The position numbers were made by a program, and so were the translations under genes. DNA of 64,000 nucleotides from an uncultured Candidatus Bathyarchaeia archaeon. GTDB lineage: Archaea; Thermoproteota; Bathyarchaeia; 40CM-2-53-6; RBG-13-38-9. Numbering within the stretch: the first letter of the stretch is position 1; every line of letters starts with the position of its first letter. Location: positions 49,650 to 113,649 of the forward strand of contig CAYZRW010000001.1 in the NCBI GenBank assembly GCA_964480955.1, given 5' to 3'. Below, in pieces: positions 10,149 through 30,772 of the stretch. The notes beneath the pieces are model-generated. The model worked only from the letters and a program-made list of their open reading frames with translations, was not told the DNA's origin and made no database searches.

Positions 10149-10158
10149 CTTTTCTTCC

Positions 10159-10656: not shown

Positions 10657-11122
10657 CCGCTACTCCTCCAGGCCTCATGGACTTGACCATGTTCTCTACC
10701 CAATGTTTTCCTGCTACCGTGAGTCTGTATGTGTCGCCCTCTTTGTAGGAGAAACCTTCACGTTTGAGTTCGCTGAGTCTGCTTGCGAATCCGACTGATA
10801 GGAATCCGCTGAGACTCAGGAGGCGACTGAGTTCTCTCGGCCTCACGCCTCTTGGGTCCATGGCGTAGAGCAGGATGCCGACCGCCTCTCTGTCGGTAAG
10901 TTTCTCTTTTGTGACTGTCAGGACCGGCCCTTCGGTTGTCACTTGGACTATTCCTGAGAGGATGTCCTTCTCCCCTACTGCGGCTGACTGGCTTGTAATC
11001 ATGCTGTCGATGACCTCGAGCCATTCAGGGAAGTCTTTCAGGCGGTCTATGATCTCGTCGAAGTTCTCGCCTTCCAGTTCTATGTCGCCGTAGCTTCTGT
11101 GGAGTACGAGCCTGACCTTCAA
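10643..11122 (-). CDS. paralogue 3 of the tandem family
   Basis: 159 aa: MKVRLVLHRSYGDIELEGENFDEI...GFSYKEGDTYRLTVAGKHWVEN. A TATA-like box lies 33-41 nt upstream. Confidence 0.55.
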   Translation of the reverse strand: MKVRLVLHRSYGDIELEGENFDEIIDRLKDFPEWLEVIDSMITSQSAAVGEKDILSGIVQVTTEGPVLTVTKEKLTDREAVGILLYAMDPRGVRPRELSRLLSLSGFLSVGFASRLSELKREGFSYKEGDTYRLTVAGKHWVENMVKSMRPGGVAVERR

Positions 11123-11154
11123 GTCGGTTCAGGATCTCTTTAGTCTACTGAAAA

Positions 11155-11163
11155 GTATATAAG
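11155..11163 (-). promoter_or_regulatory. TATA-box-like element upstream of paralogue 3 (archaeal promoter, near-leaderless)
   Basis: gtatataag lies 33-41 nt upstream of the ATG at 11122, consistent with an archaeal TATA centred at about -27 and a short leader. Confidence 0.35.
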
Positions 11164-11185
11164 TCTTGCCGTAAAGTTGGAAGTA

Positions 11186-11206
11186 TACGTAACGTTTAAC
11201 GTTTAC
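11186..11206. promoter_or_regulatory. tandem palindromic hexamers tACGTaACGTTtaACGTTtac between paralogues 4 and 3; candidate operator
   Basis: Two or three copies of the self-complementary AACGTT/ACGT spaced 7-8 nt apart in the 119-nt intergenic region. Confidence 0.3.
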
Positions 11207-11241
11207 AGAGAGCCTAACGAGGCCACTCAAGAGAAATAGAG

Positions 11242-11739
11242 TTACCGCAGCTTTCTGAGAACCTCATTCTCAACCCACTGTACACCGGCACCTGAGAGGG
11301 AGTACTTCCCGTTCTCAGCCACCAGTCGGCCCTCCCTTCTGAGTTCACTTGCTCTTGCCCTAACCGCTTCAGGCTTCATAGTCTTCCAGCTTGAGCTGAG
11401 GAGATTGCTTAACTCATCACATTCGATTGTTGCAGGTCGGGCTGCGTAGAGGATCAGTGCCAAAGCCTCCTTCGCCTTTAAGGTATCGACGGGAACCGTG
11501 AGCCTGGGTTTGCCTTCAGGTGTGAGCTCAACCACACCTTGTAGGGAGGGCGCGACTTGCATCTCTTGCCCCTCAAACTCAGAGAGCGTCTTTTGTAAAG
11601 AAGGTTGCTCACGGTCTGTTCTTGGGAGATTCTCCAAGAGCCTCTCGAAGCATTCTTTCACATATGTGAAGTTGCCTTCGAGCTCTACCTCATAATCCCC
11701 ACATCTTATTCGAAATCTCAAAGTCCTGTCTTCGCTCAA
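11242..11739 (-). CDS. paralogue 4 of the tandem family
   Basis: 165 aa: MSEDRTLRFRIRCGDYEVELEGNFTYVKECFERL...GRLVAENGKYSLSGAGVQWVENEV. It shares the MSEDRT N-terminus with paralogue 2. Confidence 0.55.
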   Translation of the reverse strand: MSEDRTLRFRIRCGDYEVELEGNFTYVKECFERLLENLPRTDREQPSLQKTLSEFEGQEMQVAPSLQGVVELTPEGKPRLTVPVDTLKAKEALALILYAARPATIECDELSNLLSSSWKTMKPEAVRARASELRREGRLVAENGKYSLSGAGVQWVENEVLRKLR

Positions 11740-12230
11740 CGGCTAATTTCTCCTATCTAGCTTCATCGCTGAGTTCTGAGTCACCAACTTAGCTACCAAG
11801 CTATATCAATAAAGGTCTTTTGCGGTCGCGCTGAAGATTTCTGGGGGTTAATCCATTTATTTTAATCGGGACCGTTCAGACTCCACATAGGCCCCCCGCA
11901 TAACTCAGCCTCATCCGCAGCAACTTAAGAGCGAATGCCGATGACTACGCCAATCTTCAAGCCAACTGCAGAAACCAAATCCTTCACAGTAAGAACGTTA
12001 TCTCAAGAGCCCAAATCCCAGTGACGGTCCCTAACGCTCTGCGGATTCGTCCAGTTTCATCAACCTCTTCAAGATATAGGCTCATGTTGCGCATATTCTA
12101 GACGAGTCCAGCAGAAAAATATTTGTGAAAGGCATGGAAGATTTGTGATCTAAGCCATTGTTTGCGCTTTACTTGCAGTGAACTCTGATAGCTGATCCGA
12201 GAGTGGCCGAGATCCTACGCATCAGGGTGC

Positions 12231-12449
12231 ATGGGACGGTTAGAAGTTAGGTGGAGTAAGATGTTGAGTGAGAGCCGACCAGGTCGACCGCGTCAACTTC
12301 CTTATGAGGGAAAACTCAGAAGAAGGACTGTTTGGTTGACGGAGAAGACTTGGCGACGAATCGAGGAGTGGTCACAGAGCAAAGGATGCGCCAGTATCAG
12401 TGAGGCTGTCAGGCAACTGGTGATGCGTGGGCTCGAAAGCCAGCAGTGA
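12231..12449 (+). CDS. ribbon-helix-helix (CopG/Arc-like) DNA-binding protein
   Basis: 72 aa: RRTVWLTEKTWRRIEEWSQSKGCASISEAVRQLVMRGLE is a beta-strand followed by two helices, the typical RHH fold. The real start may be the internal Met (MLSES...). Confidence 0.5.
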   Translation: MGRLEVRWSKMLSESRPGRPRQLPYEGKLRRRTVWLTEKTWRRIEEWSQSKGCASISEAVRQLVMRGLESQQ

Positions 12450-12577
12450 TTTGGGTCAGCCAGCCTCCTACGTTTTGCCACAAGTTTCAAAACGGATTAG
12501 TCTAGGAAGAGGCTTGGTAAGACCTAGCTCACTCAGAAAAACTCTTTATCTTGACCTAGTACCAAATATCGAGGCAT

Positions 12578-12717
12578 GCGGCCGTAGTCTAGATGTGCGG
12601 TCTGGAGTAGCCCGAAGACCCAGAGCACAGGACAACCTGGTCTAGGACATTGGCCTTCCATGATCAACATACAGTCGAAGCAAGCCAACGACCCGGGTTC
12701 GAATCCCGGCGGCCGCA
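12578..12717 (+). tRNA. tRNA-Gly(UCC) containing two introns: 43 nt in the D-loop and 22 nt at 37/38
   Basis: Exons GCGGCCGTAGTCTAG (12578-12592), CCTGGTCTAGGACATTGGCCTTCCA (12636-12660) and AGCCAACGACCCGGGTTCGAATCCCGGCGGCCGCA (12683-12717) assemble into a 75-nt cloverleaf. Acceptor stem GCGGCCG/CGGCCGC. D-stem GTCT/GGAC with D-loop AGCCTGGTCTA. Anticodon stem TTGGC/GCCAA with loop CTTCCAA (anticodon UCC). Variable loop CGAC. T-arm CCGGG-TTCGAAT-CCCGG. Discriminator A. CCA is not encoded. Confidence 0.65.
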
Positions 12718-12724
12718 CACCACT
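12704..12724 (+). repeat. attL core (overlaps the tRNA-Gly 3' end)
   Basis: Near-identical to 24348-24366. Similarity continues weakly downstream (GCAATGAA.TAG). Confidence 0.65.
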
Positions 12725-12842
12725 AGCAATGAATAGATACCACTCTGGGAAATGTGGGGTCTTGAAGTAAATCGCGCATTAGGGACAACGCTGCTTCTGG
12801 TCTTTAAATGGCAGCTTATATACGCTTAGACCACTTGTCAAA

Positions 12843-13565
12843 TTGTGTGTCTCACTCATGTGGTTGGGAAGCACTTTCTACAGAAACTGTGACATTGTTG
12901 TTCTTGCACTTTATCCGTTAGTCTCTATACCAGTAGTTACCTTGTTGCTGAGGATAGTTGAGATACCGACAGCAGCACTAATCTGGCTCACCTTCACGAC
13001 AATAATCATAATGGGTTGGCAGTCGTTGCGTGAAACTCATGAAATCGTGATTCTTCCGAATATTACTATATATGGAATTCGAAGGGGTGCGGGTTCGGCA
13101 GCGTTTGAGTCTCCGGTTAGGGCTCGTCAATCTAGACTCACATTCATCCATCGGGCAATACGTCGACCTTTGCTGAAGACAGAGGAATTTGGTCTTATGG
13201 ATCACTATGTTGTCACTTTTGATATTGGAAATGTTGGCTTTCACGACGTTACTCTACATGAGTACTTTGTGGAGAAGGAGGAACCATCTCCCAAAAGCAA
13301 AGTTACAGGATTGATACCTCTTTTTGGCGATATAGGTCAAAGAAAGATACTGCACAATGGAGAAAGAATAACTGGACAGTTCGGTTTACAGATTCAAGAT
13401 GATTGTCTTACTGTTTTCCGGATAAACATCATATGTGTTGGACTCGAGGCGTCTAGAAGGTTATACGTTCTCAAGAAAGGAGATAGGTTGCAGTACTTTG
13501 ACGCTGCAAGAAAAATTGGTCTGAATCGTCAGAAGACAGAAAGAGCTTTACTGTCAAAGTCATAG
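12843..13565 (+). CDS. hypothetical membrane-anchored protein (element cargo)
   Basis: 240 aa with two N-terminal TM helices then a soluble domain. AT-rich codon usage. No recognisable motifs. Confidence 0.35.
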   Translation: MCVSLMWLGSTFYRNCDIVVLALYPLVSIPVVTLLLRIVEIPTAALIWLTFTTIIIMGWQSLRETHEIVILPNITIYGIRRGAGSAAFESPVRARQSRLTFIHRAIRRPLLKTEEFGLMDHYVVTFDIGNVGFHDVTLHEYFVEKEEPSPKSKVTGLIPLFGDIGQRKILHNGERITGQFGLQIQDDCLTVFRINIICVGLEASRRLYVLKKGDRLQYFDAARKIGLNRQKTERALLSKS

Positions 13566-13586
13566 AGAGTGGCCCAAGCGTGTACG

Positions 13587-15005
13587 CTATTTACCTGCCA
13601 GAATCTCCTTTTTCAACGTCTCTTTCAATTCTCTGCTCAGTAGTTGAATCTCGTAGGCTTCTCTCTCACCTGCTGAGACACAGATCCTATGTGGTTCAGC
13701 TAACGCTTCCCTAGTCAGTATCTTTTCAGGGTCAAGACCCATACCTCTAGTAAAGGTCTTCAGCATCTCAATCTTCGAAACTTTGGTTTTGGGTCTAATA
13801 CTGAGACCAGAAGCAGAGTAGACGTTTCTCAGAAACTCAATGCCCTTCATCTGGATGTCATGGTAGGTATCGATAGTGTGACCCATCATGTAATCAACAT
13901 AGTCTGATTGAACTCCCAAAGCCATGAGTTGAGTCTTGAAGAACTTCCGAATACTATGCACCTTCAGGTCGTAGACTCTGCCCCTATTGGGCTTCAAGAG
14001 TCCTGCTTTGAAATACAATCCATGTACTAGCTGGTAGATCTGCTTCTCACCAATCGGCTTAGGAGTTCCCGAATTTGCATCCTTTATCAAGGGTGAATCA
14101 TCTGTGATGTCTTCGGGAGGGATCTTGCCGTCTGGTGAACCCTTCCGTCTAGTCTCCAAGTAGAGCTTCAGATATTCCACAGCTTCTTGGCCTAGAAATG
14201 TGTCATAATCGTGATACTTGCCTTTGGTTATGTCTGCCTCAACATGAATGTGAAGAGGGACTATCCCACGTTCCAGATCCTCTTTGACATGACCGTAAGT
14301 CAGCTTGATTAGGGTACCTTCTCTGAAGCCCCCCAGAGCCAGCAACGAGATTATGACTTTCTCACGGAGATCCGCTATGTCTAGTAGCTTTGCGAGTTCT
14401 TCAGGCCTTGGAGCCCGGTCCTTTCTGATGGTTCTCCGTTGTAGTGGGAAGGGGAGTTTTAGATCGATTCCGTGAACGCGGTATAGTGCTCTGATAGCCT
14501 TGACGTAGTTGCATATTCTGCATGGTGCAAGTCCTTCGTCTTGAAGTTCTGCGACAAATCGCTCTAGAGCTTTGATATGTTCTTGGAGTCTTTCATGTCT
14601 TACTTGTCCCTCTTCATTCTTCATATTACCGACAAGTTCGTCGGGGGTTAGATTGAGATAGTTGCAGTATCGTGTGATACAGTCTACATACAAGTAGAGT
14701 GTCTTGGGGCTGCCTGTCCTATACCTTAGAAGGTAGTTAGCAAGATTCTGTAATGCGAGGTTCTGAAATACATATGGGATCAGTCGAGGTCGTTCCCTCA
14801 GAAGAGAAGTGATGATATACTTGACAAGCCCCTTCTGGCTTACTGCCCTTAGATCCTCAAGAGGAACCTGAACTGGTGTTTTGAGTCTAGACCCTTCAGA
14901 ACTGTACTCTAACAGGAAACTGGTGTCTTCAATTCTCCCGAGACTCGTTAGAAACGGGAGGTCCTCAAGTGTAAGCATCCTTTCTTTCAAGATGAGTTCT
15001 GTCAA
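13587..15005 (-). CDS. int: tyrosine recombinase / integrase (intact, non-partitioning type)
   Basis: 472 aa. C-terminal catalytic region has HSIRKF (HxxR) ... GHTIDTYHD (nucleophile Tyr). It is adjacent to the tRNA att site. Confidence 0.75.
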   Translation of the reverse strand: MTELILKERMLTLEDLPFLTSLGRIEDTSFLLEYSSEGSRLKTPVQVPLEDLRAVSQKGLVKYIITSLLRERPRLIPYVFQNLALQNLANYLLRYRTGSPKTLYLYVDCITRYCNYLNLTPDELVGNMKNEEGQVRHERLQEHIKALERFVAELQDEGLAPCRICNYVKAIRALYRVHGIDLKLPFPLQRRTIRKDRAPRPEELAKLLDIADLREKVIISLLALGGFREGTLIKLTYGHVKEDLERGIVPLHIHVEADITKGKYHDYDTFLGQEAVEYLKLYLETRRKGSPDGKIPPEDITDDSPLIKDANSGTPKPIGEKQIYQLVHGLYFKAGLLKPNRGRVYDLKVHSIRKFFKTQLMALGVQSDYVDYMMGHTIDTYHDIQMKGIEFLRNVYSASGLSIRPKTKVSKIEMLKTFTRGMGLDPEKILTREALAEPHRICVSAGEREAYEIQLLSRELKETLKKEILAGK

Positions 15006-15119
15006 GGGTTATCGCCATATGTCGAGGGCTCTTGTGTACTTGTGTACAAGAGTATGAAAGTGTAGAAACCTAGATATAAACGCCTTGGTACACCTATCCT
15101 TAGGTACAAGGGAGCATAA

Positions 15120-15281
15120 ATGGCTCGCTGGCACGTGATAATTCCAGACGACCTTGACAAGAAGTTCCGAATGAGGGTTCTGGAGGAATATGGAAGTGAG
15201 AAGGGTGCTCTTAGTAAGGCCGTAGCCGAGGCTATTGATCTCTGGTTGAAACAGAGAGAATCAATGCCTAAGAAATGGTAG
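15120..15281 (+). CDS. small ribbon-helix-helix protein (53 aa), missed by the >=60 aa ORF track
   Basis: ATG at 15120: MARWHVIIPDDLDKKFRMRVLEEYGSEKGALSKAVAEAIDLWLKQRESMPKKW. This is a beta-strand plus two helices, as in CopG/Arc/MetJ. Preferred over the antisense ORF 15002..15298. Confidence 0.5.
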   Translation: MARWHVIIPDDLDKKFRMRVLEEYGSEKGALSKAVAEAIDLWLKQRESMPKKW

Positions 15282-15284
15282 CTT

Positions 15285-15545
15285 CTAGACGACTTCACGC
15301 ATCTCCAATATGGCTTTCTTTAGTATTGCGAGTCCACTTGATCTAATCCTAGCATTCTTTGGTGGATTTGGCTCAGAGAATCGCTCCCAGACTAGGCGAA
15401 TGAAATCATCACCCTCGTAGTCAAGCCAACCGACACATTCACGGGTCCAAGGCCGATATTCTGAGGAGTCTGAGTCTTTGAATAATACATGATCTCTGTA
15501 GCGCACATAGAACAGTGACCCCGACTTCTTCTTCTGTACCAACAA
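15285..15545 (-). CDS. hypothetical protein (element)
   Basis: 86-aa ORF placed between the helicase-module gene and the RHH gene. No motifs. Confidence 0.3.
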   Translation of the reverse strand: MLVQKKKSGSLFYVRYRDHVLFKDSDSSEYRPWTRECVGWLDYEGDDFIRLVWERFSEPNPPKNARIRSSGLAILKKAILEMREVV

Positions 15546-15558
15546 TAATCGCCCAGCC

Positions 15559-16380
15559 TTACTTGGTCAGCCTCCAATAGCCATCAGGATCCTTGGCCAG
15601 TAACCCCTCATCTTGAAACCTCTTCAGATAGCCCTCGGCCTTGGTGCGGTCTCCAGTCACCTTCATAGCTTGCTCGACAGCATAGTCCCAGCTCATGGGG
15701 CCCTTCACAGTTCGAAGTCTTCCGAGAACAAGGTCACGGACAGAATACTCCTCGTCTTTGCAGTTAAGCGGTGGTGCAGAGGATCTAGAGGCTGTAGATG
15801 TTTCCGGAAGGGTAGTTTCTACGTTGAAAGAGCTGTCAGAAGGCTCCCCTATCTTCCCTTTATTGCTCAGTTGCTCAGAATGCTCAGAACCAAGTGATGT
15901 TTCCCCTATGTGATCTCTGAGCAACTGAGCATCTGAGCAACTTTTAGGGGATATGAGGGTACTCAAAGTTTCAGTTCTTTTGACGTCATAGGTCGCGGCT
16001 AGCCGGTCGATGAGATCCCTATCGGTGACGATTGCGTAGCTACCTTTTGCATCAGGCATTCTAGCCTTTTTGAAACCGAGGCGAGCCAGAATCCAACCGA
16101 CTTTCTGAGGTTTGATACTGTCTTTCTCATCTCGCTCCTCGTTCACCTCTTCCGTGATAGCTTTGATAGGCAAGCGATCTCCCACGACTTGATCTAGACA
16201 TGTCACTATTGCTCGCACCACTTCTGCCTCTAAGCTGCTGGCTTCCTCTTCCCGCTGTTCTTGAAAGACGCCTAAAGCAAAGTCTTTGAGTTCGTCTTGG
16301 ATCTCATCGCTTGGAGCCACTTTGAGAAGGGCGTGGAAGATCTCGCCAACCCGACCATAGCGGTTCATGGTTTCGAACAT
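15559..16380 (-). CDS. hypothetical protein with C-terminal winged-helix domain; probable partner or C-terminal module of the SF3-like replication protein
   Basis: 273 aa. C-terminal YSVRDLVLGRLRTVKGPMSWDYAVEQAMKVTGDRTKAEGYLKRFQDEGLL. It directly follows ORF 16381..17112 (stop and start are adjacent). It contains an internal octamer repeat array. Confidence 0.4.
   Translation of the reverse strand: MFETMNRYGRVGEIFHALLKVAPSDEIQDELKDFALGVFQEQREEEASSLEAEVVRAIVTCLDQVVGDRLPIKAITEEVNEERDEKDSIKPQKVGWILARLGFKKARMPDAKGSYAIVTDRDLIDRLAATYDVKRTETLSTLISPKSCSDAQLLRDHIGETSLGSEHSEQLSNKGKIGEPSDSSFNVETTLPETSTASRSSAPPLNCKDEEYSVRDLVLGRLRTVKGPMSWDYAVEQAMKVTGDRTKAEGYLKRFQDEGLLAKDPDGYWRLTK
15862..15943. repeat. 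iteron-like array: three (T/A)TGCTCAG octamers, a ~25-bp spacer, then three inverted copies
   Basis: attGCTCAGttGCTCAGaatGCTCAGaacc ... tctCTGAGCaaCTGAGCatCTGAGCaactt. Located inside the coding sequence of the putative replication-module gene. Confidence 0.45.
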
Positions 16381-17112
16381 CTATGGTGTCCTCTCCTCGA
16401 ATTTTCGAAAACGGTAGCGGAGCAGTTTGCTTCTGAGAGTTTGAGCCCAAGCTAAGTCGATCTTCATAGGGATCTCACGTTGGTTTCGAACCATTCGGAT
16501 GAAGATACATCTAGATCCAAGTGAGTCGGGTGGCTGCCGAGTTCCTGCCAAGACTTTCGGTGAGAAAACCTTGTAGATGATAAGTTCAGAACCGGAGTCG
16601 CTTTCCCTTGGGCGTCTAGGGACAACTGAGCCTCTGCGGTAACCTGCATTAAAGAGGCCATCCAACTCGTTTCTTGTCTCTTTGGGCCAGAACTCGTAGT
16701 TGTCCGCTAGAAGAGTTGGACAGTAACGGTCAACAACCCAGAATACGACGGCTGGAGTCGGATGTGTGATATGCCAGCCTCGAAAGCAGAGCTGCGCGAG
16801 AACCTCTAAGGCTTTTGTCTTCCCTGTATTCTTTGGGCCGAGGAAGTCAAGGTAGGGTACAGCCTCAAACTCTTCAATCCTCCATGTCATGAGGATGAAG
16901 CAACTCATAACGGTGTAGCACTTCTTCTCTCGTAGCTCAAGATAATGTTGGTTGAACTCGCGGACCTCCTTGAAGAGCTCCAGGTCCGAGCCGTAATCGA
17001 TTGGAGAGCCCGGCAAAGGCCAAAGCGGCTGCTTCAACGGAACAAGGATTCCCTCATCCTGAGTGCCCGGGAATTGAATGTCGTCACGTGTTTGCCAAGA
17101 GCCGTCAGACAT
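16381..17112 (-). CDS. P-loop NTPase, SF3-helicase-like (plasmid/viral replication-protein type)
   Basis: 243 aa. Walker A FLGPKNTGKTKA resembles the SF3 GPPNTGKS/T. A downstream hydrophobic-D (VVFWVVDRY) and LLADNYE are possible B and C motifs. Confidence 0.45.
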   Translation of the reverse strand: MSDGSWQTRDDIQFPGTQDEGILVPLKQPLWPLPGSPIDYGSDLELFKEVREFNQHYLELREKKCYTVMSCFILMTWRIEEFEAVPYLDFLGPKNTGKTKALEVLAQLCFRGWHITHPTPAVVFWVVDRYCPTLLADNYEFWPKETRNELDGLFNAGYRRGSVVPRRPRESDSGSELIIYKVFSPKVLAGTRQPPDSLGSRCIFIRMVRNQREIPMKIDLAWAQTLRSKLLRYRFRKFEERTP

Positions 17113-17361
17113 CTTCTCGTGGATAGCATAGTAGCCGCCACAACCGGGGATCTTTATCTGCTCTACTATCGTTAATTGCCAGATCCCGCCAGGAGACTCT
17201 GTTCTTCGTGGCTGCTCCTCATTGCCAGAACGTTCATTACCCTGCCTTCGGCTTCTAGATATCTTAGCTCACCTTCCTTGCTGGCTGCAGGGTGTGTTGA
17301 GCCGAGGTTAGGAGCGGCCGCGAACCTTTCCTAACCTCCATTTTATTCGTCATTGTTCATG

Positions 17362-17715
17362 TCAACCGAATCTCGAGATTAACTTGTTATTTGGACCTGA
17401 GAACTTGTACTGTCTGCCATGAAGTTCCGTACTTCCACCATTCCTTGCCAACATATCAACGAGCATTTGAGCGACTGGGTGGTTTAAGTTGCGAAAGATC
17501 CAAGCTCCTTTACCGGATCTGAATGATTTCCAAGGGAGCTCCTCGGGGGTCTCTTTTGTAAACTCAGTTTTACCAATCATCTCAGGTGGAGATTCCTTGA
17601 TATTCTTCTCAATCTTCTCTAGCTCGCCAAGACATTCCTCCAGTTGCTGTCGAATTGATTGGATAATCGATAGCGCGATTTCAGACAACTTCAGTCTCAC
17701 CTTGTTTTTGACCAC
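17362..17715 (-). CDS. hypothetical protein (element)
   Basis: 117 aa with a coiled-coil-like N-terminus. No motifs. Confidence 0.3.
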   Translation of the reverse strand: MVKNKVRLKLSEIALSIIQSIRQQLEECLGELEKIEKNIKESPPEMIGKTEFTKETPEELPWKSFRSGKGAWIFRNLNHPVAQMLVDMLARNGGSTELHGRQYKFSGPNNKLISRFG

Positions 17716-17920
17716 CTTCGCTCTTTGTTATACTCGGAATTGTCGGTGCGTAGATACCGAGCGCCTTCTTCTCCTCTGGGCTGAGGTAGGAAAGTTTAGC
17801 TAACTCTATCTTGACGGCTCTGCGGACTAGATCGCTTACATCCTCGCCTCTGGCTTCTACAACTTTGCGGAGGACCGTGAGTGTCCTTGGATCGAACCTT
17901 ACCACAATCTGGTTAGCCAT
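17681..17920 (-). CDS. ribbon-helix-helix protein (80 aa from the internal ATG)
   Basis: MANQIVVRFDPRTLTVLRKVVEARGEDVSDLVRRAVKIELAKL. GGAGG lies 7 nt upstream of the ATG at 17920. The longer ORF N-terminus has no support. Confidence 0.5.
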   Translation of the reverse strand: MANQIVVRFDPRTLTVLRKVVEARGEDVSDLVRRAVKIELAKLSYLSPEEKKALGIYAPTIPSITKSEGGQKQGETEVV

Positions 17921-18000
17921 TATTGCATTCCTCCGCAATGCCTTTGTATGCGAGGTATTTAGAGAATGAACACAGTTTACGACTAGCTTAAGGTGGTCGT

Positions 18001-18705
18001 TTGTCGCTAATCCCAATAGCAACTTTTCAACATAGAAAGAGAACGCGTCGTACTCCAACTCAGTCAGCGGTACTATGGTATCTTGCCCTCGAACGCCCCG
18101 CCAACTCGTACACATTAACGAAGCTTACAAAATCCAATCGAAGCAGTGTCCAGATAGCTGTCAAGAATCTGGTGAGAGACTTCCTAATTTCGAATGTGAG
18201 GACCATCCTCAGTCGGAACAGGGTTAGGAGTAAGGTATACGACCTGACCATCTTTGGCCTTTTGACGGTTCTCTCAAACACTCGACAGGAGAAAATTGTG
18301 GCTCGCGTTGCTGAGAAGCATGCAGAGAAGCTCCCTCTGATCCTTGGAAAGTGGCCTGTCTTCATTGAGAGCCATGTCGATCCTTTAGCTCTGAAGATCC
18401 TGAACAAGATGCTAAAGATAGAATGGAGTGGGGAACTTCGAAGGGAAAAGCCTGGAACCAAGACCTTCCAAACAAAATTGGCGGAGGAAGCGACAATGAT
18501 GTTCTATCTTGGCGCAGCTGACATACTGGATCCAGACGAGCTTAAAAAGTGGGTGACGGTATTCAAGATTGACAAAGAGATCGCCGACAAGTTCCTCCAT
18601 ATCTTGACTCAAGAAGAGGATTGGCATCGTAGAAGAGCAAATGAATTTCAGAAGCAGCGTATAGAGATAGCACAGAGCCTCCAACCAAATTCACGGGAGG
18701 CCTAG
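18001..18705 (+). CDS. winged-helix transcription regulator-like protein
   Basis: 234 aa. N-terminal wHTH (SAVLWYLALERPANSYTLTKLTKSNRSSVQIAVKNLVRDFLI). TTG start. Confidence 0.4.
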   Translation: MSLIPIATFQHRKRTRRTPTQSAVLWYLALERPANSYTLTKLTKSNRSSVQIAVKNLVRDFLISNVRTILSRNRVRSKVYDLTIFGLLTVLSNTRQEKIVARVAEKHAEKLPLILGKWPVFIESHVDPLALKILNKMLKIEWSGELRREKPGTKTFQTKLAEEATMMFYLGAADILDPDELKKWVTVFKIDKEIADKFLHILTQEEDWHRRRANEFQKQRIEIAQSLQPNSREA

Positions 18706-18720
18706 CTGATCTCCTCTCGG

Positions 18721-19194
18721 GTGACTGTGAGGGGCCCTTCTCAGAGGAGCAGTAGATTGAAGCTCGAGATCGAGCTGGTTCCTAAACCTCTCTGGGGGAA
18801 GACTCTGGCGAAGATGTTGCCGAGAGACGAATGGGAGAGGTTGAGAGTTCAAAGGATCCAGGAGAAAGGTGAGAGATGCGAGATCTGTGGACAGGAGGGG
18901 CGTGTCCATCTTCATGAGATCTGGGAGTATGATGATGAGAGGCATGTTCAGCGGCTTGCAGGGTTCCAGCTTCTCTGCGCCACATGCCACTCCATAAAGC
19001 ACTTCGGCCTCACCCAAAACCTGGCGGCTGAAGGGAAGATTAACCTAAAGCCCATCACCACACACTTCTGCAAGGTCAACAACTGCACATTCCAGGATTT
19101 GAAGAACCATTGGAGGTCAACATATGAGAGATGGAAGCAGAGGTCTCAGCATCAGTGGACACAGGACTTAAGCCGACTGAAACAACCCAGCTAA
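18721..19194 (+). CDS. HNH endonuclease
   Basis: CEICGQEGRVHLHEIWEY...FQLLCATCHSIKH fits the CxxC...HxH...N...LCxxCHxxKH HNH signature. Confidence 0.65.
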   Translation: MTVRGPSQRSSRLKLEIELVPKPLWGKTLAKMLPRDEWERLRVQRIQEKGERCEICGQEGRVHLHEIWEYDDERHVQRLAGFQLLCATCHSIKHFGLTQNLAAEGKINLKPITTHFCKVNNCTFQDLKNHWRSTYERWKQRSQHQWTQDLSRLKQPS

Positions 19195-19331
19195 GTTTTC
19201 CAACTATTCTTCTCCAGCTACCCGTGTAATCACTTCAATGCTTATGTTCGGACCGCCATAGGGCAGAAAGACCTATCTCAAACCAAGCTGTAGATCATGA
19301 GCAAAGCTGAAAGGTAGGAACGGTTGCCGTT

Positions 19332-20282
19332 TTGCCGTTCTGTTCCAGATGTGGTAGAGAACTGCAACCCAATTGGAGGTTCTGCATGCATTGCGGAACA
19401 TCTATCACTACTCCTATTCCTATACCTCCAGCTATCCCGTCTCAGCCCATCAAGGAATCGCATATCATAAGGAACATCTTCATCGGTGTGATGTTTGTCC
19501 TTGTTATTGGAATCTTCGCGGTTGCACTGTCTGTGCCGAGACCACCAGCAGTGCCTGGAGGCCCGACTGTGCCTCAGGTACAAGAAGGTGGGACAGTTAC
19601 CATAGGGCAACCATTCATCTTGAAGTTTGGAACAGATGGTATACCTGTCAAATTTGTTTTCGACTCAGCTTGGTTCACTACAACTCATGAGTACTATGAG
19701 GCAGAAAGCGGATACAAGTTCTTAATCGTCCAACTAACAGCTCAGAACATTGGAAACAAAGAGGTAATTGCTTTCAGCTGGTTAGACAAGTGGGAGGTTA
19801 CTGTAGACAAAGGCTATCTTTACGAATCAAAATCCAAACCTTCGCTGAACGTTAGGCCAGAGGAAAAGAAGGAAGAACACATCATATTTGAGATTCTTCA
19901 AGAAACAAGCCCCGTGGAAGTCGGATACTACAAGTTTCTCTCGACATCGCCAAGCGTAGTCCTAAGTTTGAAAGGAGTTGGCTTTGCGACAAAAACTGTG
20001 GCAGCAAAGGAATGGCTCACCATAGATTCTTATGAGTGGCCTAAGGGCGGAACTTTGACCATTCAGATAGAGAACTACGGGTCCGTCAGCGCCACGATTG
20101 ATAAAGTGTACATTGACGAGCTTCTTGCCTCTGATGAAGATAAGCTAATCAAACCCAAAGCTGTTGCCGAGGTTAAGTGCAGTAATCCTCAAGGGCTTTC
20201 TTTGAAATCCAATAACATCTACAAGGTAAAGATAGTGACTACGGTCGGTAACACATTCGAATCCACAGTGTACTACAAGTAG
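19332..20282 (+). CDS. Zn-ribbon / TM / extracytoplasmic beta-domain protein (DUF4352-like architecture)
   Basis: N-terminal CSRCG...CMHCG ribbon, one TM helix, then a domain with YKFLIVQLTAQNIGNKEV, which resembles DUF4352. Confidence 0.4.
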   Translation: MPFCSRCGRELQPNWRFCMHCGTSITTPIPIPPAIPSQPIKESHIIRNIFIGVMFVLVIGIFAVALSVPRPPAVPGGPTVPQVQEGGTVTIGQPFILKFGTDGIPVKFVFDSAWFTTTHEYYEAESGYKFLIVQLTAQNIGNKEVIAFSWLDKWEVTVDKGYLYESKSKPSLNVRPEEKKEEHIIFEILQETSPVEVGYYKFLSTSPSVVLSLKGVGFATKTVAAKEWLTIDSYEWPKGGTLTIQIENYGSVSATIDKVYIDELLASDEDKLIKPKAVAEVKCSNPQGLSLKSNNIYKVKIVTTVGNTFESTVYYK

Positions 20283-20294
20283 GATGATAGGAAA

Positions 20295-20849
20295 GTGGCT
20301 GAGAGAACCGCTGAATTTATCCTCGGGCTGATAGGTGGAATCTCAGGCATACTTGTGGCTCCAGCACTTTACCTTCTTGGAGGCGTCTGGATGGCTTTCG
20401 GAGGTCCAGCTACATTAGTGATCGCATCAATCGTGGGGGGAATCCTGTCAATCCTTGGGCTGATCGGAGTGGCATTCGTCAAGACTCAACCAAAACTATC
20501 TGGAGTGATCATGCTCATAAGCGGCATCCTGGGACTCATTGTTGCATTAGGACTATACGTAGGCGCCCTGCTATTGACTGTTGCTGGCATCATAACTCTC
20601 GTCCGGACAGAAAAGCCAACAGAGATTCCATCGGTACCCACCCCTCAGCCAGCGTATTACTGTACAAACTGCGGCAAGCCTTTGAAGTTCAACTCACAAC
20701 TCCAGAGATGGTATTGTGAAAGCTGTGGTGTCCGTGCCCCGACCAAGGATGAACTCCTACGATACGCCATGAAAGCGCTTGACCAAGGAGACACAGAACT
20801 CGCCAAGAAATTCATGGATCAAGCACGATCAATGTCTGAATCAACGTAG
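20295..20849 (+). CDS. polytopic membrane protein with a C-terminal zinc ribbon
   Basis: Four TM helices, then CTNCGKPLKF...CESCG. Confidence 0.4.
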   Translation: MAERTAEFILGLIGGISGILVAPALYLLGGVWMAFGGPATLVIASIVGGILSILGLIGVAFVKTQPKLSGVIMLISGILGLIVALGLYVGALLLTVAGIITLVRTEKPTEIPSVPTPQPAYYCTNCGKPLKFNSQLQRWYCESCGVRAPTKDELLRYAMKALDQGDTELAKKFMDQARSMSEST

Positions 20850-21288
20850 TCCAAAGTGAACTCAACCTAGACCGTCAAGCAATCACTAATCCATCTCTAT
20901 CTCTAACATTCGACGACAAAAGTAACAGATGATGTAGTTTTGGTTCATCTTCAGTTTCTCCTCTTTGTCTTCTCCAGCTCTTCGAGTAAAATAGTTGAGG
21001 ACTAGGCGAGGTTATCTGGACCATTGAGCCTGAGAGGCTGCGCATAGTCGAGACCACTGTAACGCATCTCAACAGGGCTCGCCAATGACCAATAGGAAAC
21101 TCACATTCCGCCTAGCTGATGATATAATAAGTGCATACACGAAGGTTGATAGAGACGGGTCGGGAGTAAACGGGACCGACATTAAGGATGCACTATGCCT
21201 AGTTGACCCCAGGCTCTACTTAGTCATTATCCATATTGACAGTAAGTTTATAGGGGGCTTGGTTTAACAATTAGTTTAACGAAGAAAC

Positions 21289-21582
21289 ATGACAAATGAA
21301 AAGATTGTTGGGTTTAGGGCGGATGATGAGGTTCTCAAAGATATAGCGTATCTCAAGATGGCTTTTGGTTGTGACACTGATACATCAGTCATTTTGATGA
21401 GCCTAAAGCTGGCTACCGAGTTGACAAAGGCGAGGGTTCTTTTGAAGGATGCTGAAACAAAGCAGATGAGCGTTCTTCTTGATGCGATCAGTGAATCAAA
21501 CAAGCAGTTGCGGTGGCTTTTTGAAAATATGGAGTTGATTAAACGTGTCTTGGGTCGGTCGGATTCGAAATCGTCCGGATAG
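21289..21582 (+). CDS. hypothetical protein, possibly RHH-like
   Basis: KIVGFRADDEVLKDIAYLKMAFGCDTDTSVILMSLKLA is a beta-strand then helices. Confidence 0.3.
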   Translation: MTNEKIVGFRADDEVLKDIAYLKMAFGCDTDTSVILMSLKLATELTKARVLLKDAETKQMSVLLDAISESNKQLRWLFENMELIKRVLGRSDSKSSG

Positions 21583-21986
21583 GTCATCATCCATCAAGCT
21601 GCCACCTTGAAGAGACTACTAGCTACTCTTAACAAAACCGCTCCCCATGAATAAGAAAGGGCAGTCCTCTAAGAGAAGTATGACAGATGCGACTCCAAGT
21701 AGCCAGCCTAGACTTAGAACCGCTGCGAGTGCACAGACTAGACGGCTATTGAGGCTGCCAAGGAACAGTAGGGACCTCCCACCTTTCCCATAATAGGGAC
21801 CGAGGCGCCGGAACAATTCCTTAAGATGCAGCTCCCCTATAGCCTCAACATTGAGATGGAAAACACTCCGCTTCTCAATGCAGTTCAAAACACCCCTAAC
21901 CAAAGACGCCAAACACACGTTAACCCCCTGACACTCCCAACTTTCATCAAAGAAACTTACTTGCAAAAAACAAGCAATCAAACAAC

Positions 21987-22315
21987 AAAATTTTTAGGAG
22001 TTTGCCGTCAAACCGTAAAACCGTGAAGCCATAAGTTTCTCTTGTATGCTCTGGGCCCTGATGGGTTACGCTGTCACCTGTCTTGGATGTTTGGTTCTTG
22101 CTTTTCTAGAGGCTGAGAAAAGACATTTGTAGGCTGGAAAATTCTTATTCGCTGCCTATTTATTCGTGAATTCACAGGCGAGGTTGAAAGCTAGATTGAC
22201 GCAGCAGGAACACAACCTCTCAAAGAGAAGATAACGATCTCTTTGCCAAATCTTAGGTATTTTTATGCTTTAACGGTTTTACGGCGAGTTTACCTAACCT
22301 AAAAATTTTGTCAAT
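21987..22315. repeat. MITE-like or origin-like structure: ~45-bp imperfect inverted repeats flanking ~240 bp of AT-rich non-coding DNA
   Basis: Left arm acaaaatttttagg...ccgtcaaaccgtaaaaccgtgaag and right arm ctttaacggttttacggcgag...cctaaaaattttgtcaat. The two arms are reverse complements over two 12-13-bp blocks. Confidence 0.4.
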
Positions 22316-22721
22316 AATTGCTAGGTTTGTTCTAGGTGCATGTTGGTTTCGTCAGCGAAAGTCAGGGTTCTGAAAGGTAAGTTGGCACTATGGCGTCCTT
22401 CTTGCTTGCAAGGAATAGTTGTCTAGGTTGGAGTCTGTAATGTGGTTAAGCGGTTTCTGCTTTCCTATTGTGTCGTCTACGAGGTTGAAGTTCATTATTG
22501 TTGCTGCTTTTTGAGATGTTCTTATTGTGTAGGTTCTTGTGTAACGTTGGTCTTGTCCTGTCAAGAGGGCTCTGGATATGGAGGCGTTTGAAACTTTGTT
22601 CTCTGCCGCTGTAGGATTCTCTAGTCTCAGAAGTGGCTCCGAATCTCCCAGTTAGGTTGGATGTGTAGGGTTTTTCAGAAGTTTCGACGTCGAAAGTGAA
22701 TCTTTATTCAAGTGGAATCAA

Positions 22722-23411
22722 ATGGATTGGTGGAGTTCCAATTGTGTCCTGTCTAAGGGAGAGGAAGGAGGGTTGACTACCGCACTGCCACCCACCCCCA
22801 ATGACACTTACGCCTTGTGGAGAGTAAAATTTCTCAAGCCTAAACCTTTGCAAAATGAGGTTTTGAGGGCTTTGTCTCAAGTTGAGAGATCAAGTGTTAA
22901 AGGTTTAGCTTCAGATTTGAAGAGGGACAGACGCTCAATTCAACGTTGCCTAGAGAGACTGAAAGACGACGGCGAAGTTCACGATGTATGGTGCCGCCCA
23001 GCACCTTGGATCAGCCCTAAAATCATTGCTCATTACCACTCTCTCCCAACTCACCTGAAGAGCAAGACCGAACATAGCTCCTCTGACTGTGAAGAGGTTG
23101 TGGAGGAGCCTTTAGGATTCAGGATCCTAAGACTATTCTCAAATTTCCAGTGCTTCACAGTCGGCAGCGTTTCGAAGTTGCTTAAGAAACATCATAGCCA
23201 AGTAAGGAAGGTTCTGAAGACTCTTCACCGGCATGGCCTTGTCGATTATACAGAACATAAGACTGGAAGGGACCCAGACTCTCTGGGAAAAATATGTTTC
23301 TGGTTTGTCAACGATGAAGGCCGAACCTTAGCCGGACAGTCCGTAAAGGAATATGATTGTGTTGTTCGTAGGCGTAGAGGCGGAATAGCCTATAGGCATC
23401 GGGTGTCGTGA
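22722..23411 (+). CDS. tandem winged-helix (MarR-like x2) transcription regulator
   Basis: Two wHTH units (NEVLRALSQVERSSVKGLASDLKRDRRSIQRCLERLKDDGEV and FRILRLFSNFQCFTVGSVSKLLKKHHSQVRKVLKTLHRHGLVDY). Confidence 0.45.
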   Translation: MDWWSSNCVLSKGEEGGLTTALPPTPNDTYALWRVKFLKPKPLQNEVLRALSQVERSSVKGLASDLKRDRRSIQRCLERLKDDGEVHDVWCRPAPWISPKIIAHYHSLPTHLKSKTEHSSSDCEEVVEEPLGFRILRLFSNFQCFTVGSVSKLLKKHHSQVRKVLKTLHRHGLVDYTEHKTGRDPDSLGKICFWFVNDEGRTLAGQSVKEYDCVVRRRRGGIAYRHRVS

Positions 23412-23458
23412 CGCGTTACCTGAAACTATTTGAGTTAGTTAACGTTGCTTCTGTAATT

Positions 23459-24166
23459 CTATAATGTACTGGGATGTGGTGTCTTTCCATCTTCTCTGAG
23501 ACGTGGAAACTCAAATCGGAATAACTCCGTCTCCGCATAGACACGTCCAACTAAGCCCCTATAATCTAGCATAGGTTGACGGGCTCGAACTGCGCTGAGG
23601 ATTTGTGATTTGGCGTCAATACTCACGAATTCCCTATATTCTGAGTGAATCACGCCTTCCCGGAATACACATTCTCTCATTTCTTGAGGATAGACACTTA
23701 GTAAGAATAGACCAGCGAGAGCTCTAACCGTGAGACGAAGATTCATCTTGTTGAATAAGACCTCAAGGTTATGCTTGAACTTCGAATACGCTTTGAACCA
23801 CTCTGGTGATTGATTGCTTGAAAATTCTTCGAAAGGTCTTATGATACCGTAGTCACGAGGTAAGACACGCACACCCAACTGTGAAAGCTGATAATGCGGC
23901 TCGAATGCTTCCCTGAAGTCATCTATTGATACAGTCTCTTTGTTGATTCTTGGATATCCTTCGTAGCCTTCATATTTGGCCATGCGATAAAAGGCGGTTT
24001 CAATCCAATTTCCGACGCTAGAGGCTAGGGACGCCAACTCAAACGAGATGACTTCATCGTGCCTTTTGATGAGGGGAACGAATCGTATAAACTCAAGAAA
24101 CTTATCTTCAAGTTCGCGATATGCTGCCCAATAATCACTAACTTCAAGTGGTGTAGCGCTTTCCAA
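23459..24166 (-). CDS. hypothetical protein (element cargo next to attR)
   Basis: 235 aa with no clear motif. Weak Rx5H (REAFEPH). Confidence 0.3.
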   Translation of the reverse strand: MESATPLEVSDYWAAYRELEDKFLEFIRFVPLIKRHDEVISFELASLASSVGNWIETAFYRMAKYEGYEGYPRINKETVSIDDFREAFEPHYQLSQLGVRVLPRDYGIIRPFEEFSSNQSPEWFKAYSKFKHNLEVLFNKMNLRLTVRALAGLFLLSVYPQEMRECVFREGVIHSEYREFVSIDAKSQILSAVRARQPMLDYRGLVGRVYAETELFRFEFPRLREDGKTPHPSTL

Positions 24167-24347
24167 AAGGGTCCCCTCGCTGTTTAGCTATGTATGAAAT
24201 AACTGAAGATAAAGGTCATCGATCCTAGTTGATCAGAAGGATGTATAGGACAAATTATTGAGAGTTCTATACCCGTACTTGATCATGTGGTAGGAACGTT
24301 TTCAAGACGAGAGTGAGTGGGTACGTATTCAGTTCTAGATGATTAAG

Positions 24348-24366
24348 TCCCGGCGGCCGCACCACT
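24348..24366 (+). repeat. attR core (partial copy of the tRNA-Gly 3' end, T-loop not intact)
   Basis: tcccggcggccgcaccact, preceded by the degenerate ttaag instead of ttcgaa. Confidence 0.65.
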
Positions 24367-24455
24367 CTGGCAATGAACTAGTGTTGTTTATTCCAGTTTT
24401 CAACATGTGAGCAGGGTGGAGGAGGGTCTAAGAATGTTAAAGGTTCCGGACAGGG

Positions 24456-25100
24456 TTGAACTTATTTCTGCGAGCTTCCGAGCCATGTGACTCGAATCAC
24501 CCAGTTGTAAAGGCAACTGCTGCCAAGATCACGGAGGAGGCCGAGACACCGAAGGATGCAGCAATTGGGATATTCTATTTCGTTAGGGATAAGATACCGT
24601 TAGCAATAGTTCATCCTTGGAAGACTGCTTCGGAGACTCTGAAGATAGGCAGAGGAAGTTGCCTCACAAAAGCCACACTTCAAGTGGCATTGCTCAGGTC
24701 TGTAGGAATTCCCGCTAGATTTAGGGTTATTGAGTTCAAGGGCAACGACCCAGAGGAATGGCGGGGCATACTATCCTCGTTGGCTGTATCCAAAATGCCT
24801 GAGCGGTGGCCGCACTAAGTCGAAGTTTACATCGACGGTAGATGGACAATGGCGGATGCAACTCTTGACAAAGCTTTGATCCCAGATACCGAAGACTGGA
24901 ATGGTGACAACGATGTCTGCTCGATCAAGGACAGAGCAATCCTGTCAGACAAGGGAGCCGTCGCATTCATTGAGGAAGAAGCAAGAAAGCTAGATGAAAA
25001 ATATAGAACCCACACTTTCTGGGTTATGAATGGCTATGAGTTCTTTTGGATATTGAATATCTATCAGAGAGTTCAACGTCTCAAGAACAAGCTCCGTTGA
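24456..25100 (+). pseudogene. transglutaminase-like cysteine peptidase-fold protein interrupted by an in-frame TAA
   Basis: The Cys motif IGRGSCLTKATLQVALLRSVGIPARF and the His/Asp region PH*VEVYIDGRWTMADATLD are in the same frame. A TAA at 24816-24818 sits where the HxWVEVY motif is expected. Confidence 0.6.
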
Positions 25101-25366
25101 AGATCAAGGGTAACAAGCGCGCGCTCCACGTAGTCTTCTCTATTGATTCTTCTGTGCTCGTTCGTTCTTCATCTTGGACGGAGATTCGCTCTTCGACGAG
25201 TTCTTTCTCAGACTTGGCCTTCCGGCCAGATGATTGTGATCGTCTAGTGTGGATTACGCCAATAGTTGTGCCATATCTTCCAGATGTCACCTTGCAGATT
25301 GGTAACTTTATTGAGGAGGATGCGGTTCTAAGATGTAGTCTTGGGTGGCGATCCCGGGTAATCCAA

Positions 25367-27508: not shown

Positions 27509-27658
27509 AGAACTTCATTCTTGCGTTTCGACGTATGGATCTGTTAACCAGACGCACGAGCGAGTATGCCAAAGCAGATTTCCTCATAAGTATCATTTCT
27601 CCAGCGGCTCTCTTCCACCGTGCGCGTCAGCTTATCTCATCCACTCTTGCAGCAGTCT

Positions 27659-28831: not shown

Positions 28832-28834
28832 ATC

Positions 28835-30576: not shown

Positions 30577-30772
30577 GTGTAGTGGCTGACCAACCTATTT
30601 GTCTTGCTCCGGCAATGGTGCATTCATGATATTTATCGAAGAACTTGAAGATACGGCGCATATCAAATATGGCCGGAGAAGACATTGGGCAAATCAACCT
30701 GAAGACGCAACCTTTGAAAGGTTCATTAGATAGTTGTTGACGGTTTAGAGAGCCCACCCAAGGTCCTACTAA

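Follow-up and report, generated by a model that had tools for sequence, protein, structure and literature searches.

A probable plasmid-like cryptic element integrated at a tRNA-Gly gene in a Bathyarchaeia chromosome

Cryptic integrated elements (CIE) with a median length of 17 kb have been described from Thaumarchaeota/Nitrososphaeria (Krupovic et al., 2019, PMC6563490). Archaeal integrases are sorted into class I and class II (defined in PMC8371274), and pNOB8-type integrases are recognised by an R...Y-x-x-R...Y signature and by at least 30% identity over 60% of their length (PMC8371274). Among replication proteins, pRN1 ORF904 and the alpha protein of satellite phage P4 share a layout of primase, superfamily 3 (SF3) helicase and winged helix (PMC2777425). 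A locus that resembles these systems in part was analysed in a 64,000-nucleotide (nt) stretch of contig CAYZRW010000001.1, referred to below as the window. Positions 12718-24361 of the window most probably represent a cryptic integrated element of 11,644 bp, plasmid-like in kind, carried by the chromosome of a Bathyarchaeia archaeon.

Integration at the 3' end of tRNA-Gly(UCC)

The sole Rfam tRNA of the window lies at 12578-12717 (forward strand) and scores 47.5 bits, against a gathering score of 29. ARAGORN in default mode overlooks it because the gene has two introns. When ~42-44 nt were cut from the D-loop region, ARAGORN consistently called tRNA-Gly(tcc) with a canonically placed intron of 22 nt. 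The gene is a tRNA-Gly(UCC) with two introns, one of ~42 nt in the D-loop region and one of 22 nt at the canonical position. Another ARAGORN call, tRNA-Leu(CAG) at 23084-23165 inside the winged helix-turn-helix (wHTH) open reading frame (ORF) 22722-23411, is probably a false positive and has no Rfam match even at E <= 1.

The final 14 nt of the tRNA, TCCCGGCGGCCGCA, have two exact occurrences in the window (12704-12717 and 24348-24361); chance alone would yield 0.22 matches when up to two mismatches are allowed. The exact repeat, TCCCGGCGGCCGCAC, has 15 nt (these 14 plus one base), and ungapped extension reaches 30 nt at 87%. The repeat given as 19-21 bp in the initial annotation is therefore shorter in its exact part and longer in its imperfect part. 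One copy is the 3' end of tRNA-Gly and the other lies at the far end, 11,644 bp (12718-24361) being enclosed between them, as expected of a direct repeat left by integration into a tRNA gene. The G+C content of the enclosed segment is 46.4%, against 51.9% in the left and 49.0% in the right flank. This drop, which the initial annotation had noted, is modest; nonetheless, no other 11.6-kb stretch of the window is as low in G+C. To the right of the element the G+C content remains low until ~28000, and another dip (44.5-45.5%) is found at 59000-61000.

JGI metagenome contigs were scanned with one degenerate pattern covering all four junctions (attL, attR, attB and attP). A single contig was returned (Ga0315280_10000560, 68.5 kb; L005; related loci and proteins are cited below by L and P numbers). 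Its identity to the window is 97% over 12173-12736 and 98.4% over 27138-34547. Its tRNA-Gly joins CCACTCTGGCAATGAACTAGTGTTG directly, which is the window sequence from 24362 on. The junction falls exactly at the repeat, and no trace of window 12718-24361 is present in L005. The attB of this strain, which belongs to the same species, is unoccupied. The initial annotation had proposed an integrated element at the 3' end of tRNA-Gly and had named an empty site in a related genome as the check; such a site exists, and together with the repeat and the G+C minimum it bears the proposal out. The attB-spanning sequence is GGGTTCGAATCCCGGCGGCCGCACCACTCTGGCAATGAAC, and the predicted attP-spanning sequence is GATGATTAAGTCCCGGCGGCCGCACACCACTAGCAATGAATAG.

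The occupied state was found, 99.99-100% identical, in contigs from SRR5214704, SRR5214703, SRR6481372, ERZ27247973 and JGI 3300025136, and the protein index lists it for an NCBI assembly as well. The insertion at tRNA-Gly is real and recent. Presence and absence among ~98%-identical strains strongly implies mobility and recent movement.

Since the empty site carries the other arm (CACTCTGGCAATGAACTAG), the arm CACCACTAGCAATGAATAGATA that follows the attL core comes from the element. Integration rebuilds the body of the tRNA, but the gene-encoded CCA is swapped for CAC. The host arm CACTCTGGCAATGAACTAG (24362-24381) is itself similar to the element arm ACCACTAGCAATGAATAGATA (12719-12740), and an older, related insertion may have left the 'empty' site behind as its scar. 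To the right, no older outer attR copy, which would be a sign of tandem integration, was found within 8 mismatches of 25 nt.

L005 differs from the window in further ways. It is also without window 24426-27137, which holds an ORF for a 120-aa (amino acid) transglutaminase-core fragment and the larger part of a ClC-channel/CBS gene (820 aa). A direct repeat of 11 nt, GGTGGAGGAGG, at 24415-24425 and 27127-27137 brackets the missing segment (L005 7398-7409); because of this repeat the loss looks like a microhomology deletion. It leaves a 122-aa CBS-pair ORF with a new start. On the other side, homology between L005 and the window ends at window 12173, and L005 has there (7810-8527) a TnpB-like 168-aa ORF with a Zn-finger/RuvC-like C-terminus. 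The lone ribbon-helix-helix (RHH) gene at 12231-12449, which the initial annotation had placed outside attL, does lie outside the element: it is present beside the empty site of L005, where 45 aa of it are left. It may, as had been suggested, be a remnant of an earlier integration.

The left flank is chromosomal, as indicated by synteny in >10 Bathyarchaeia metagenome-assembled genomes (MAGs), none of which has genes of the element there except for an integrase fragment in L011. The syntenic block comprises HerA, NurA, four paralogous genes of 159-195 aa and tRNA-Gly, the tRNA-Gly gene being kept beside the NurA/HerA cluster in seven Bathyarchaeia MAGs. HerA is 78-84% identical to that of Candidatus Bathyarchaeota/Bathyarchaeia MAGs, which by sequence places the host in the Bathyarchaeia. 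To the right of the tRNA, conservation between species is nil, so the tRNA-Gly end is a variable spot. The four tandem paralogues (195, 165, 159 and 165 aa) at 9615-11739 are syntenic across Bathyarchaeia, two of them also in Nitrososphaeria MAGs, and may be uncharacterised partners of HerA-NurA.

The tyrosine integrase, annotated from the start as full-length, is intact. It matches PF00589 Phage_integrase (7e-8), phrog_1 (1e-13) and the archaeal XerA model (2e-14, far under the cut-off of that model). Its catalytic set is complete (R228, K261/263, H350-x-x-R353, H376, Y381), and its box reads H-S-I-R. The ORF is uninterrupted, ~870 bp from attL, and the repeat lies outside the gene. An unbroken gene points to the lambda or archaeal class II scheme and not to the 'split gene' scheme of SSV. 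An SSV-type (class I, 'suicidal') integrase was ruled out by the unsplit ORF and the position of the att repeat. Membership of the pNOB8 integrase family was ruled out by the H-x-x-R box (in place of Y-x-x-R) and by the lack of any match to PLSDB archaeal plasmids at E <= 1e-3. Integration by the lambda paradigm (archaeal class II) can be taken as shown or strongly supported: the element's own integrase recombined a circular attP (...GATTAAG-TCCCGGCGGCCGCAC-ACCACTAGCAATGAATAGATA...) with an attB formed by the last 14 nt of tRNA-Gly(UCC) plus one base.

The integrase aligns over its full length (96-100% coverage) with >100 homologous clusters at 56-77% identity. At least 1300 homologues were found at E <= 1e-10, and all named ones are labelled Bathyarchaeota/Bathycorpusculaceae. 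The best characterised relative is the psiM100 integrase (25% identity). An arm of the element type, CTAGCAATGAATAGATA, directly follows tRNA-Gly in MAG loci of two other species (L011, L013). Also present in L011 are a DNA methylase, a VapBC-like pair and the fragments of an integrase pseudogene (58% identity). The complete Bathyarchaeota genome CP060866.1 has an integrase of 64% identity and, 25 bp beyond it, 20 nt of the tRNA-Gly end as a partial copy, GAATCCCGGCGGCCGCACCA. Judged from these three loci, the integrase family uses the 3' end of tRNA-Gly(UCC) repeatedly across species.

Large-terminase genes, each followed by an ABC-type ATPase gene, are found ~8-10 kb from integrases of the same family in L040 (CP060866.1 799458-820960; integrase 64%) and L044 (IMGVR_UViG_3300035099_000682; 52%). 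The integrase family is thus common to different kinds of elements. The terminase-bearing Bathyarchaeia elements, which use the same tRNA-Gly end, are potential helpers for a satellite comparable to Sulfolobus pSSVi/pSSVx or bacterial P4, that is, an element that integrates and replicates by itself, while a Bathyarchaeia virus in the same host packages it into its particles and spreads it. A length of 11.6 kb and a gene set of integrase, helicase-wHTH Rep and regulators, with capsid genes missing, fit this pattern. They fit a plain integrative plasmid equally, however. No helper-manipulating function (capsid-size redirection, small terminase, cos/pac proteins) was detected in Pfam, PHROGs or PADLOC scans, nor was a helper virus identified in the window. 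A helper-dependent satellite is considered very improbable.

A putative replication module with Rep in two parts

The protein with the motif GPKNTGKT (243 aa) had been described in the initial annotation as typical of plasmid or viral SF3 replication helicases. It has no match in Pfam, PHROGs, NCBIfam, PADLOC or PDB sequences. A word-indexed search gave just 10 close homologues, and an exhaustive profile search with the ATPase gave 15,160 cluster representatives at E <= 0.001 (8,727 at E <= 1e-10). Most of these relatives have ~450-550 aa with the ATPase domain at the N-terminus and are equivalent to both window ORFs joined. The consensus of their C-terminal half (GRxxELFxPL...) aligns with the start of the neighbouring 273-aa ORF, MNRYGRVGEIFHALL, and natural fusions of both halves occur in P0010 and in the L043 protein. 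Consensus alignment and fusions indicate that ORFs 16381-17112 and 15559-16380 are the two halves of one Rep protein, a correction to the initial annotation. The 273-aa half ends in a helix-turn-helix-like segment (phrog_2440), where its homologue P0012 matches MarR_2. A search with the alignment of close Rep proteins found no relative in GTDB species genomes or IMG/VR.

In the window (16378-16386) and in the 88%-identical L032 (10730-10738), the Rep halves are parted by an in-frame TAG followed by ATG. Other junctions have an ATGA overlap (L036) or an 8-nt gap (L037), with TGA stops and other frame relations. Stop-codon recoding or readthrough was rejected on the grounds that L036 and L037 have TGA stops in other frames, and ordinary translational coupling of the halves appears more likely. 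The split is common to all close relatives, and both halves are intact in at least nine related clusters (60-88% identity).

A Rep in two ORFs, where most relatives have a single protein, could also be a sign of decay, as could the missing primase. The locus would then be a genomic island that was once integrated and is now immobile and non-replicative. The attP junction was not found in the scanned collections, every element-bearing contig has the same single site, and the tRNA-Gly site of other MAGs holds degraded remnants (the L011 integrase fragments). Against decay, all core ORFs are full-length, the catalytic residues of the integrase are complete, and strains of ~98% identity differ in carrying the element, which argues for recent movement. 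A split that is kept with differing stop and start arrangements points to a functional two-subunit form and not to a recent nonsense mutation. A decaying island is extremely improbable.

The ATPase was modelled with AlphaFold from a 111-sequence alignment (pLDDT, predicted local distance difference test, 91; pTM, predicted template modelling (TM) score, 0.87). The model has a five-stranded AAA+ core, a helical lid and a beta-hairpin (163-181) between Walker B and sensor 1. In Foldseek searches, papillomavirus E1 and adeno-associated virus (AAV) Rep40 rank top against the PDB (TM ~0.43), and phage primase-helicases rank top against BFVD (TM up to 0.76). MCM, E1, Rep40 and phage primase-helicases are the best structural neighbours. 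Its predicted fold places the 243-aa protein among the AAA+ ATPases of replication type, in the helicase group that bears a hairpin. The label 'SF3-like' describes this likeness fairly, with a fold near SF3/MCM; membership of SF3 is not established, no curated SF3 family being matched. Among the distant relatives sampled, a few have Prim-Pol plus PriCT-1 or primase-subunit-like domains ahead of the ATPase domain, and a Haladaptatus plasmid protein has an NrS-1 polymerase HBD domain ahead of an ATPase-like domain.

Related elements keep the order of the module (small RHH-like gene, 112-163-aa gene, Rep-N, Rep-C, 82-86-aa gene) and differ in their cargo: L032 carries an ApeA/HEPN gene, L036 ParB-like genes and L037 AbiE. 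In L032, two fluoride riboswitches (18222-18292 and 18996-19067) flank small genes by a Na+/H+ exchanger in host DNA beside the related element; they are unrelated to it. The 79-aa RHH-like protein of the window gave weak matches to Plasmid_stab_B, PSK_trans_fac and DUF6290 (E ~0.1), and L032 and L043 each have a gene of 68-79 aa at this position. The analogy to pRN1 ORF56 makes the window protein a candidate copy-control repressor. The 86-aa protein has homologues immediately behind Rep in L032 (54%) and L043 (53%) and immediately ahead of the integrase in L040 (36%); it is a candidate accessory DNA-binding or directionality factor. The 86-aa and 112-117-aa proteins have no family match in Pfam or PHROGs.

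A composite inverted repeat sits within a ~1.1-kb gene-poor stretch (21600-22720; DNA fold z = -2.9) and is a candidate origin or control region. Arms of 14 nt are 100% complementary and arms of 22 nt 86%, and the motifs are unique in the window. Neither the 1.1-kb region nor the repeat is conserved in the fetched related loci, and no Rfam family was matched.

Accessory genes and the nature of the element

Table 1. Coordinates, strands and supporting evidence of the features of the integrated segment and its target (window positions).
Feature	Position	Strand	Evidence
Host tRNA-Gly(UCC), two introns; attachment site (attB half of attL) at its 3' end	12578-12717	+	Rfam RF00005; ARAGORN after intron removal
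attL core, 15-nt exact repeat TCCCGGCGGCCGCAC; element-derived arm CACCACTAGCAATGAATAGATA next	12704-12718	+	repeat search
Membrane protein, 235-240 aa, N-terminal transmembrane helices, between attL and integrase	12858-13565	+	ORF list, L002 gene call, hydropathy
Tyrosine integrase, 472 aa, intact after integration	13587-15005	-	PF00589, phrog_1, XerA model, catalytic residues
86-aa protein accompanying Rep and/or integrase genes	15285-15545	-	homologues in L032, L043, L040
Putative Rep C-terminal half, 273 aa, winged-helix-like end	15559-16380	-	fused relatives; phrog_2440 at residues 213-272
Putative Rep N-terminal half, AAA+ ATPase, 243 aa; Walker A GPKNTGKT, Walker B LLADNYE, basic beta-hairpin 163-181 (VPRRPRE)	16381-17112	-	
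112-117-aa protein upstream of Rep	17362-17715	-	tblastn 38% to L032; gene calls in L001
79-aa RHH-like protein, head of Rep operon	17681-17920	-	gene call; weak profile matches
Putative wHTH protein, 234 aa	18001-18705	+	weak MarR_2 match, E 0.06; nothing else
HNH endonuclease, 145-157 aa	18721-19194	+	phrog_5200 7e-30; Pfam HNH weak, E 0.03
Membrane protein, 316 aa: N-terminal Zn ribbon, one transmembrane helix (43-74), DUF4352-like outer domain	19332-20282	+	Zn_Ribbon_1 1.4e-8, DUF4352 1e-4
Membrane protein, 184 aa: four transmembrane helices (DUF4064), C-terminal Zn ribbon CxxC...CxxC	20295-20849	+	DUF4064 3e-9, phrog_6780 3e-17
Two small ORFs, 60 and 97 aa, RHH-like N-termini by pattern	21085-21582	+	ORF calls; no significant family match
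Composite inverted repeat, candidate origin/regulatory region, arms 21985-22034 and 22263-22311	21985-22311	.	repeat search
Regulator with two winged-helix domains, 229 aa	22722-23411	+	HVO_A0114 7e-8, TrmB 2e-7, TFIIE_alpha 1e-5
235-aa protein adjoining attR	23459-24166	-	no family match
attR core, second TCCCGGCGGCCGCAC copy; host arm CACTCTGGCAATGAACTAG next	24348-24362	+	repeat search; L005 empty site

The features are listed in Table 1. The HNH endonuclease and the two adjacent Zn-ribbon membrane proteins of the initial annotation are confirmed by family matches; of its wHTH regulators, the one at 22722-23411 is recovered by profiles and the one at 18001-18705 weakly. The membrane protein next to attL has no family match in Pfam, PHROGs, NCBIfam or PADLOC and is not conserved in L043. 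For the 235-aa protein adjoining attR, five homologous clusters, all unnamed, were found among 5.8 billion proteins; it is probably cargo.

Capsid, terminase, portal and other virion genes were not found in Pfam, PHROGs and NCBIfam scans of the ORFs, which divergent archaeal capsid proteins could escape; the absence of capsid and packaging genes recorded earlier thus holds at the sensitivity of Pfam, PHROGs and PADLOC. Pfam scans gave no conjugation genes (VirB4/TraG-like ATPases, mating pore), and the Rep ATPase is the only P-loop protein. PADLOC, searched for defence systems, gave HTH-only matches and nothing else.

The closest related element is L043, whose integrase is 77% identical and in which the order membrane pair ... 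Rep, 86-aa gene, integrase is kept. Its homologues of the membrane pair are 60% (316-aa protein) and 63% (184-aa protein) identical. The pair belongs to the conserved set of the element in that sub-lineage, and such conservation suggests that it probably matters for the life cycle of the element itself.

Conservation of the pair together with integrase and Rep would also be expected of a provirus of an unrecognised non-head-tailed type (pleomorphic or spindle-shaped), with virion proteins among the orphan and membrane ORFs and 19332-20849 encoding envelope or spike proteins; the many orphan ORFs would fit as well. Archaeal pleomorphic and spindle-shaped viruses have small genomes, integrases and membrane-embedded structural proteins that profile searches miss. 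In a Bathyarchaeia spindle virus, VP1-3 were detected only with HHblits (PMC10848311), which also counts for a provirus. On the other hand, no virus structural or packaging family is matched in Pfam or PHROGs, and no close relative of Rep or of the junction was found in IMG/VR. The DUF4064, DUF4352 and Zn ribbon families occur widely in the genomes of cells, MAG L006 has a chromosomal homologue of the tail of the 184-aa protein, and the wider Rep-sharing relatives (L032, L036, L037) are without the membrane pair. We give a provirus a slim chance. It is likewise unlikely, if less remote, that the locus is the first self-transmissible or helper-packaged 'plasmid-virus intermediate' of Bathyarchaeia. 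The membrane pair (19332-20849), with or without the orphan ORFs, would then build a vesicle or pleomorphic particle, or the element would ride in the capsids of the terminase-bearing viruses, and Rep would stand for a very large, uncharacterised family of helicase-only initiators between MCM and SF3.

Several points weigh against a plasmid-like element. No attP (circle) junction was found in JGI contigs or IMG/VR, the JGI collection being incomplete and also missing a known attL-bearing contig. Primase, polymerase and a demonstrated origin are all missing from the element, so that its autonomous replication is something we infer; Pfam scans of its ORFs gave no Prim-Pol or primase, and hence no N-terminal primase-polymerase of the pRN1 ORF904 type. 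For roughly half of the ORFs no family was detected, and sequence often fails to reveal the capsid proteins of archaeal viruses. A role in virions or in transfer would likewise agree with the retention of the membrane pair alongside integrase and Rep in L043. RHH assignments are weak: the 'at least four RHH proteins' of the initial annotation are purely pattern-based, with profile matches at or above E = 0.09.

An integrated plasmid or cryptic integrative element, which the initial annotation had preferred to a complete provirus, is still the best reading of an intact integrase and a Rep ATPase without structural genes. Outside the chromosome, such an element would be copied by a two-piece initiator/helicase, one piece being the 243-aa AAA+ ATPase with its basic pore hairpin. 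Since the element encodes neither, host primase and polymerase would presumably be recruited by its Rep. The small RHH-like protein at the operon head would be the likely copy-control repressor, and 21985-22311 the candidate origin. The HNH nuclease, wHTH regulators, Zn-ribbon membrane pair and orphan ORFs would be accessory.

Comparison with known systems

Bathyarchaeia are among the most abundant sediment archaea, and we know of no genetic system for them. A literature search found descriptions of Bathyarchaeia viruses and no description of a plasmid for the class. The integration scheme, tRNA target, short att core, helicase-type Rep and RHH/wHTH regulators of the element are precedented. 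The host class, a Rep family without a curated model and the exact definition of attB and attP are new. The element adds an example of an ordinary kind to a known class and overturns nothing. The locus provides ingredients for integrative vectors (a precisely delimited element with a natural empty site, a 15-nt core, both att arms and recurrent use of tRNA-Gly(UCC)) and a strain-level mobility marker for metagenomes. It also gives genomic context (Rep operon, primase fusions) to a large AAA+ family outside curated domain libraries.

Compared with SF3/MCM helicases (papillomavirus E1, AAV Rep40, archaeal MCM, SCCmec Cch), the ATPase has 9-20% identity and TM ~0.4-0.5; unlike them, it matches no Pfam or NCBIfam helicase model, and its profile matches no PDB sequence. 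By tblastn it is 27-28% identical, over ~70-86% of its length, to proteins of a Haladaptatus salinisoli plasmid (E 4e-20) and of Streptomyces plasmids (5e-7 to 9e-8), all of them small plasmids. The actinobacterial plasmid relatives are annotated 'DUF3631 domain-containing', whereas the Pfam DUF3631 model itself misses the window ATPase. These DUF3631-type relatives are bacterial, and the Haladaptatus one is haloarchaeal with its fusion to the NrS-1 polymerase HBD, unlike the element.

The element resembles satellite phage P4 in having an integrase and a helicase-winged-helix Rep, no capsid genes and a similar size (we take the P4 genome to be ~11.6 kb). P4 differs in being bacterial, in the DnaG-type primase of its alpha protein and in helper-manipulating genes without a detected counterpart here.

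Like the pRN-family plasmids (pXZ1, pSSVi; pRN1 ORF56/ORF904), the element is small, cryptic and tRNA-integrating, with a small RHH repressor predicted to head the replication operon. The homology of its 243-aa ATPase to pXZ1 Rep (1077 aa) covers residues 419-664 of the latter (hhalign probability 96.9%, E 2e-10); the homologous pXZ1 domain is without the Walker A lysine, so equivalence with the SF3 core of ORF904 is not established. Unlike Rep of these plasmids, that of the element is in two ORFs. The pXZ1 integrase is presumably SSV-type and splits on integration. It is related to a fusellovirus integrase (PMC8371274), whereas the integrase gene of the element is intact. The order of domains in the element Rep, NTPase then winged helix, is that of pRN1 ORF904 and P4 alpha (PMC2777425).

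The integrase is like the class II (pNOB8-like) integrases in that the gene is intact, attP lies outside it, and a tRNA 3' end is targeted and the tRNA reconstituted (PMC8371274). It is unlike the pNOB8 subfamily, for which Y-x-x-R is quoted (PMC8371274), in its box H-x-x-R (H350/R353), as in XerA and bacterial integrases.

Unlike CIE, the element has a Bathyarchaeia host, a helicase-only AAA+ Rep in two ORFs without a Pfam model, and an integrase of a large family in which the members with a name bear the label Bathyarchaeota/Bathycorpusculaceae. Like CIE, it combines small size with a tyrosine integrase, RHH/wHTH regulators and a lack of virus or conjugation hallmark genes, and it carries a helicase-type Rep just as CIE carry replication helicases of mobile genetic elements (MCM, Cch-like, primpol-S3H) (PMC6563490).

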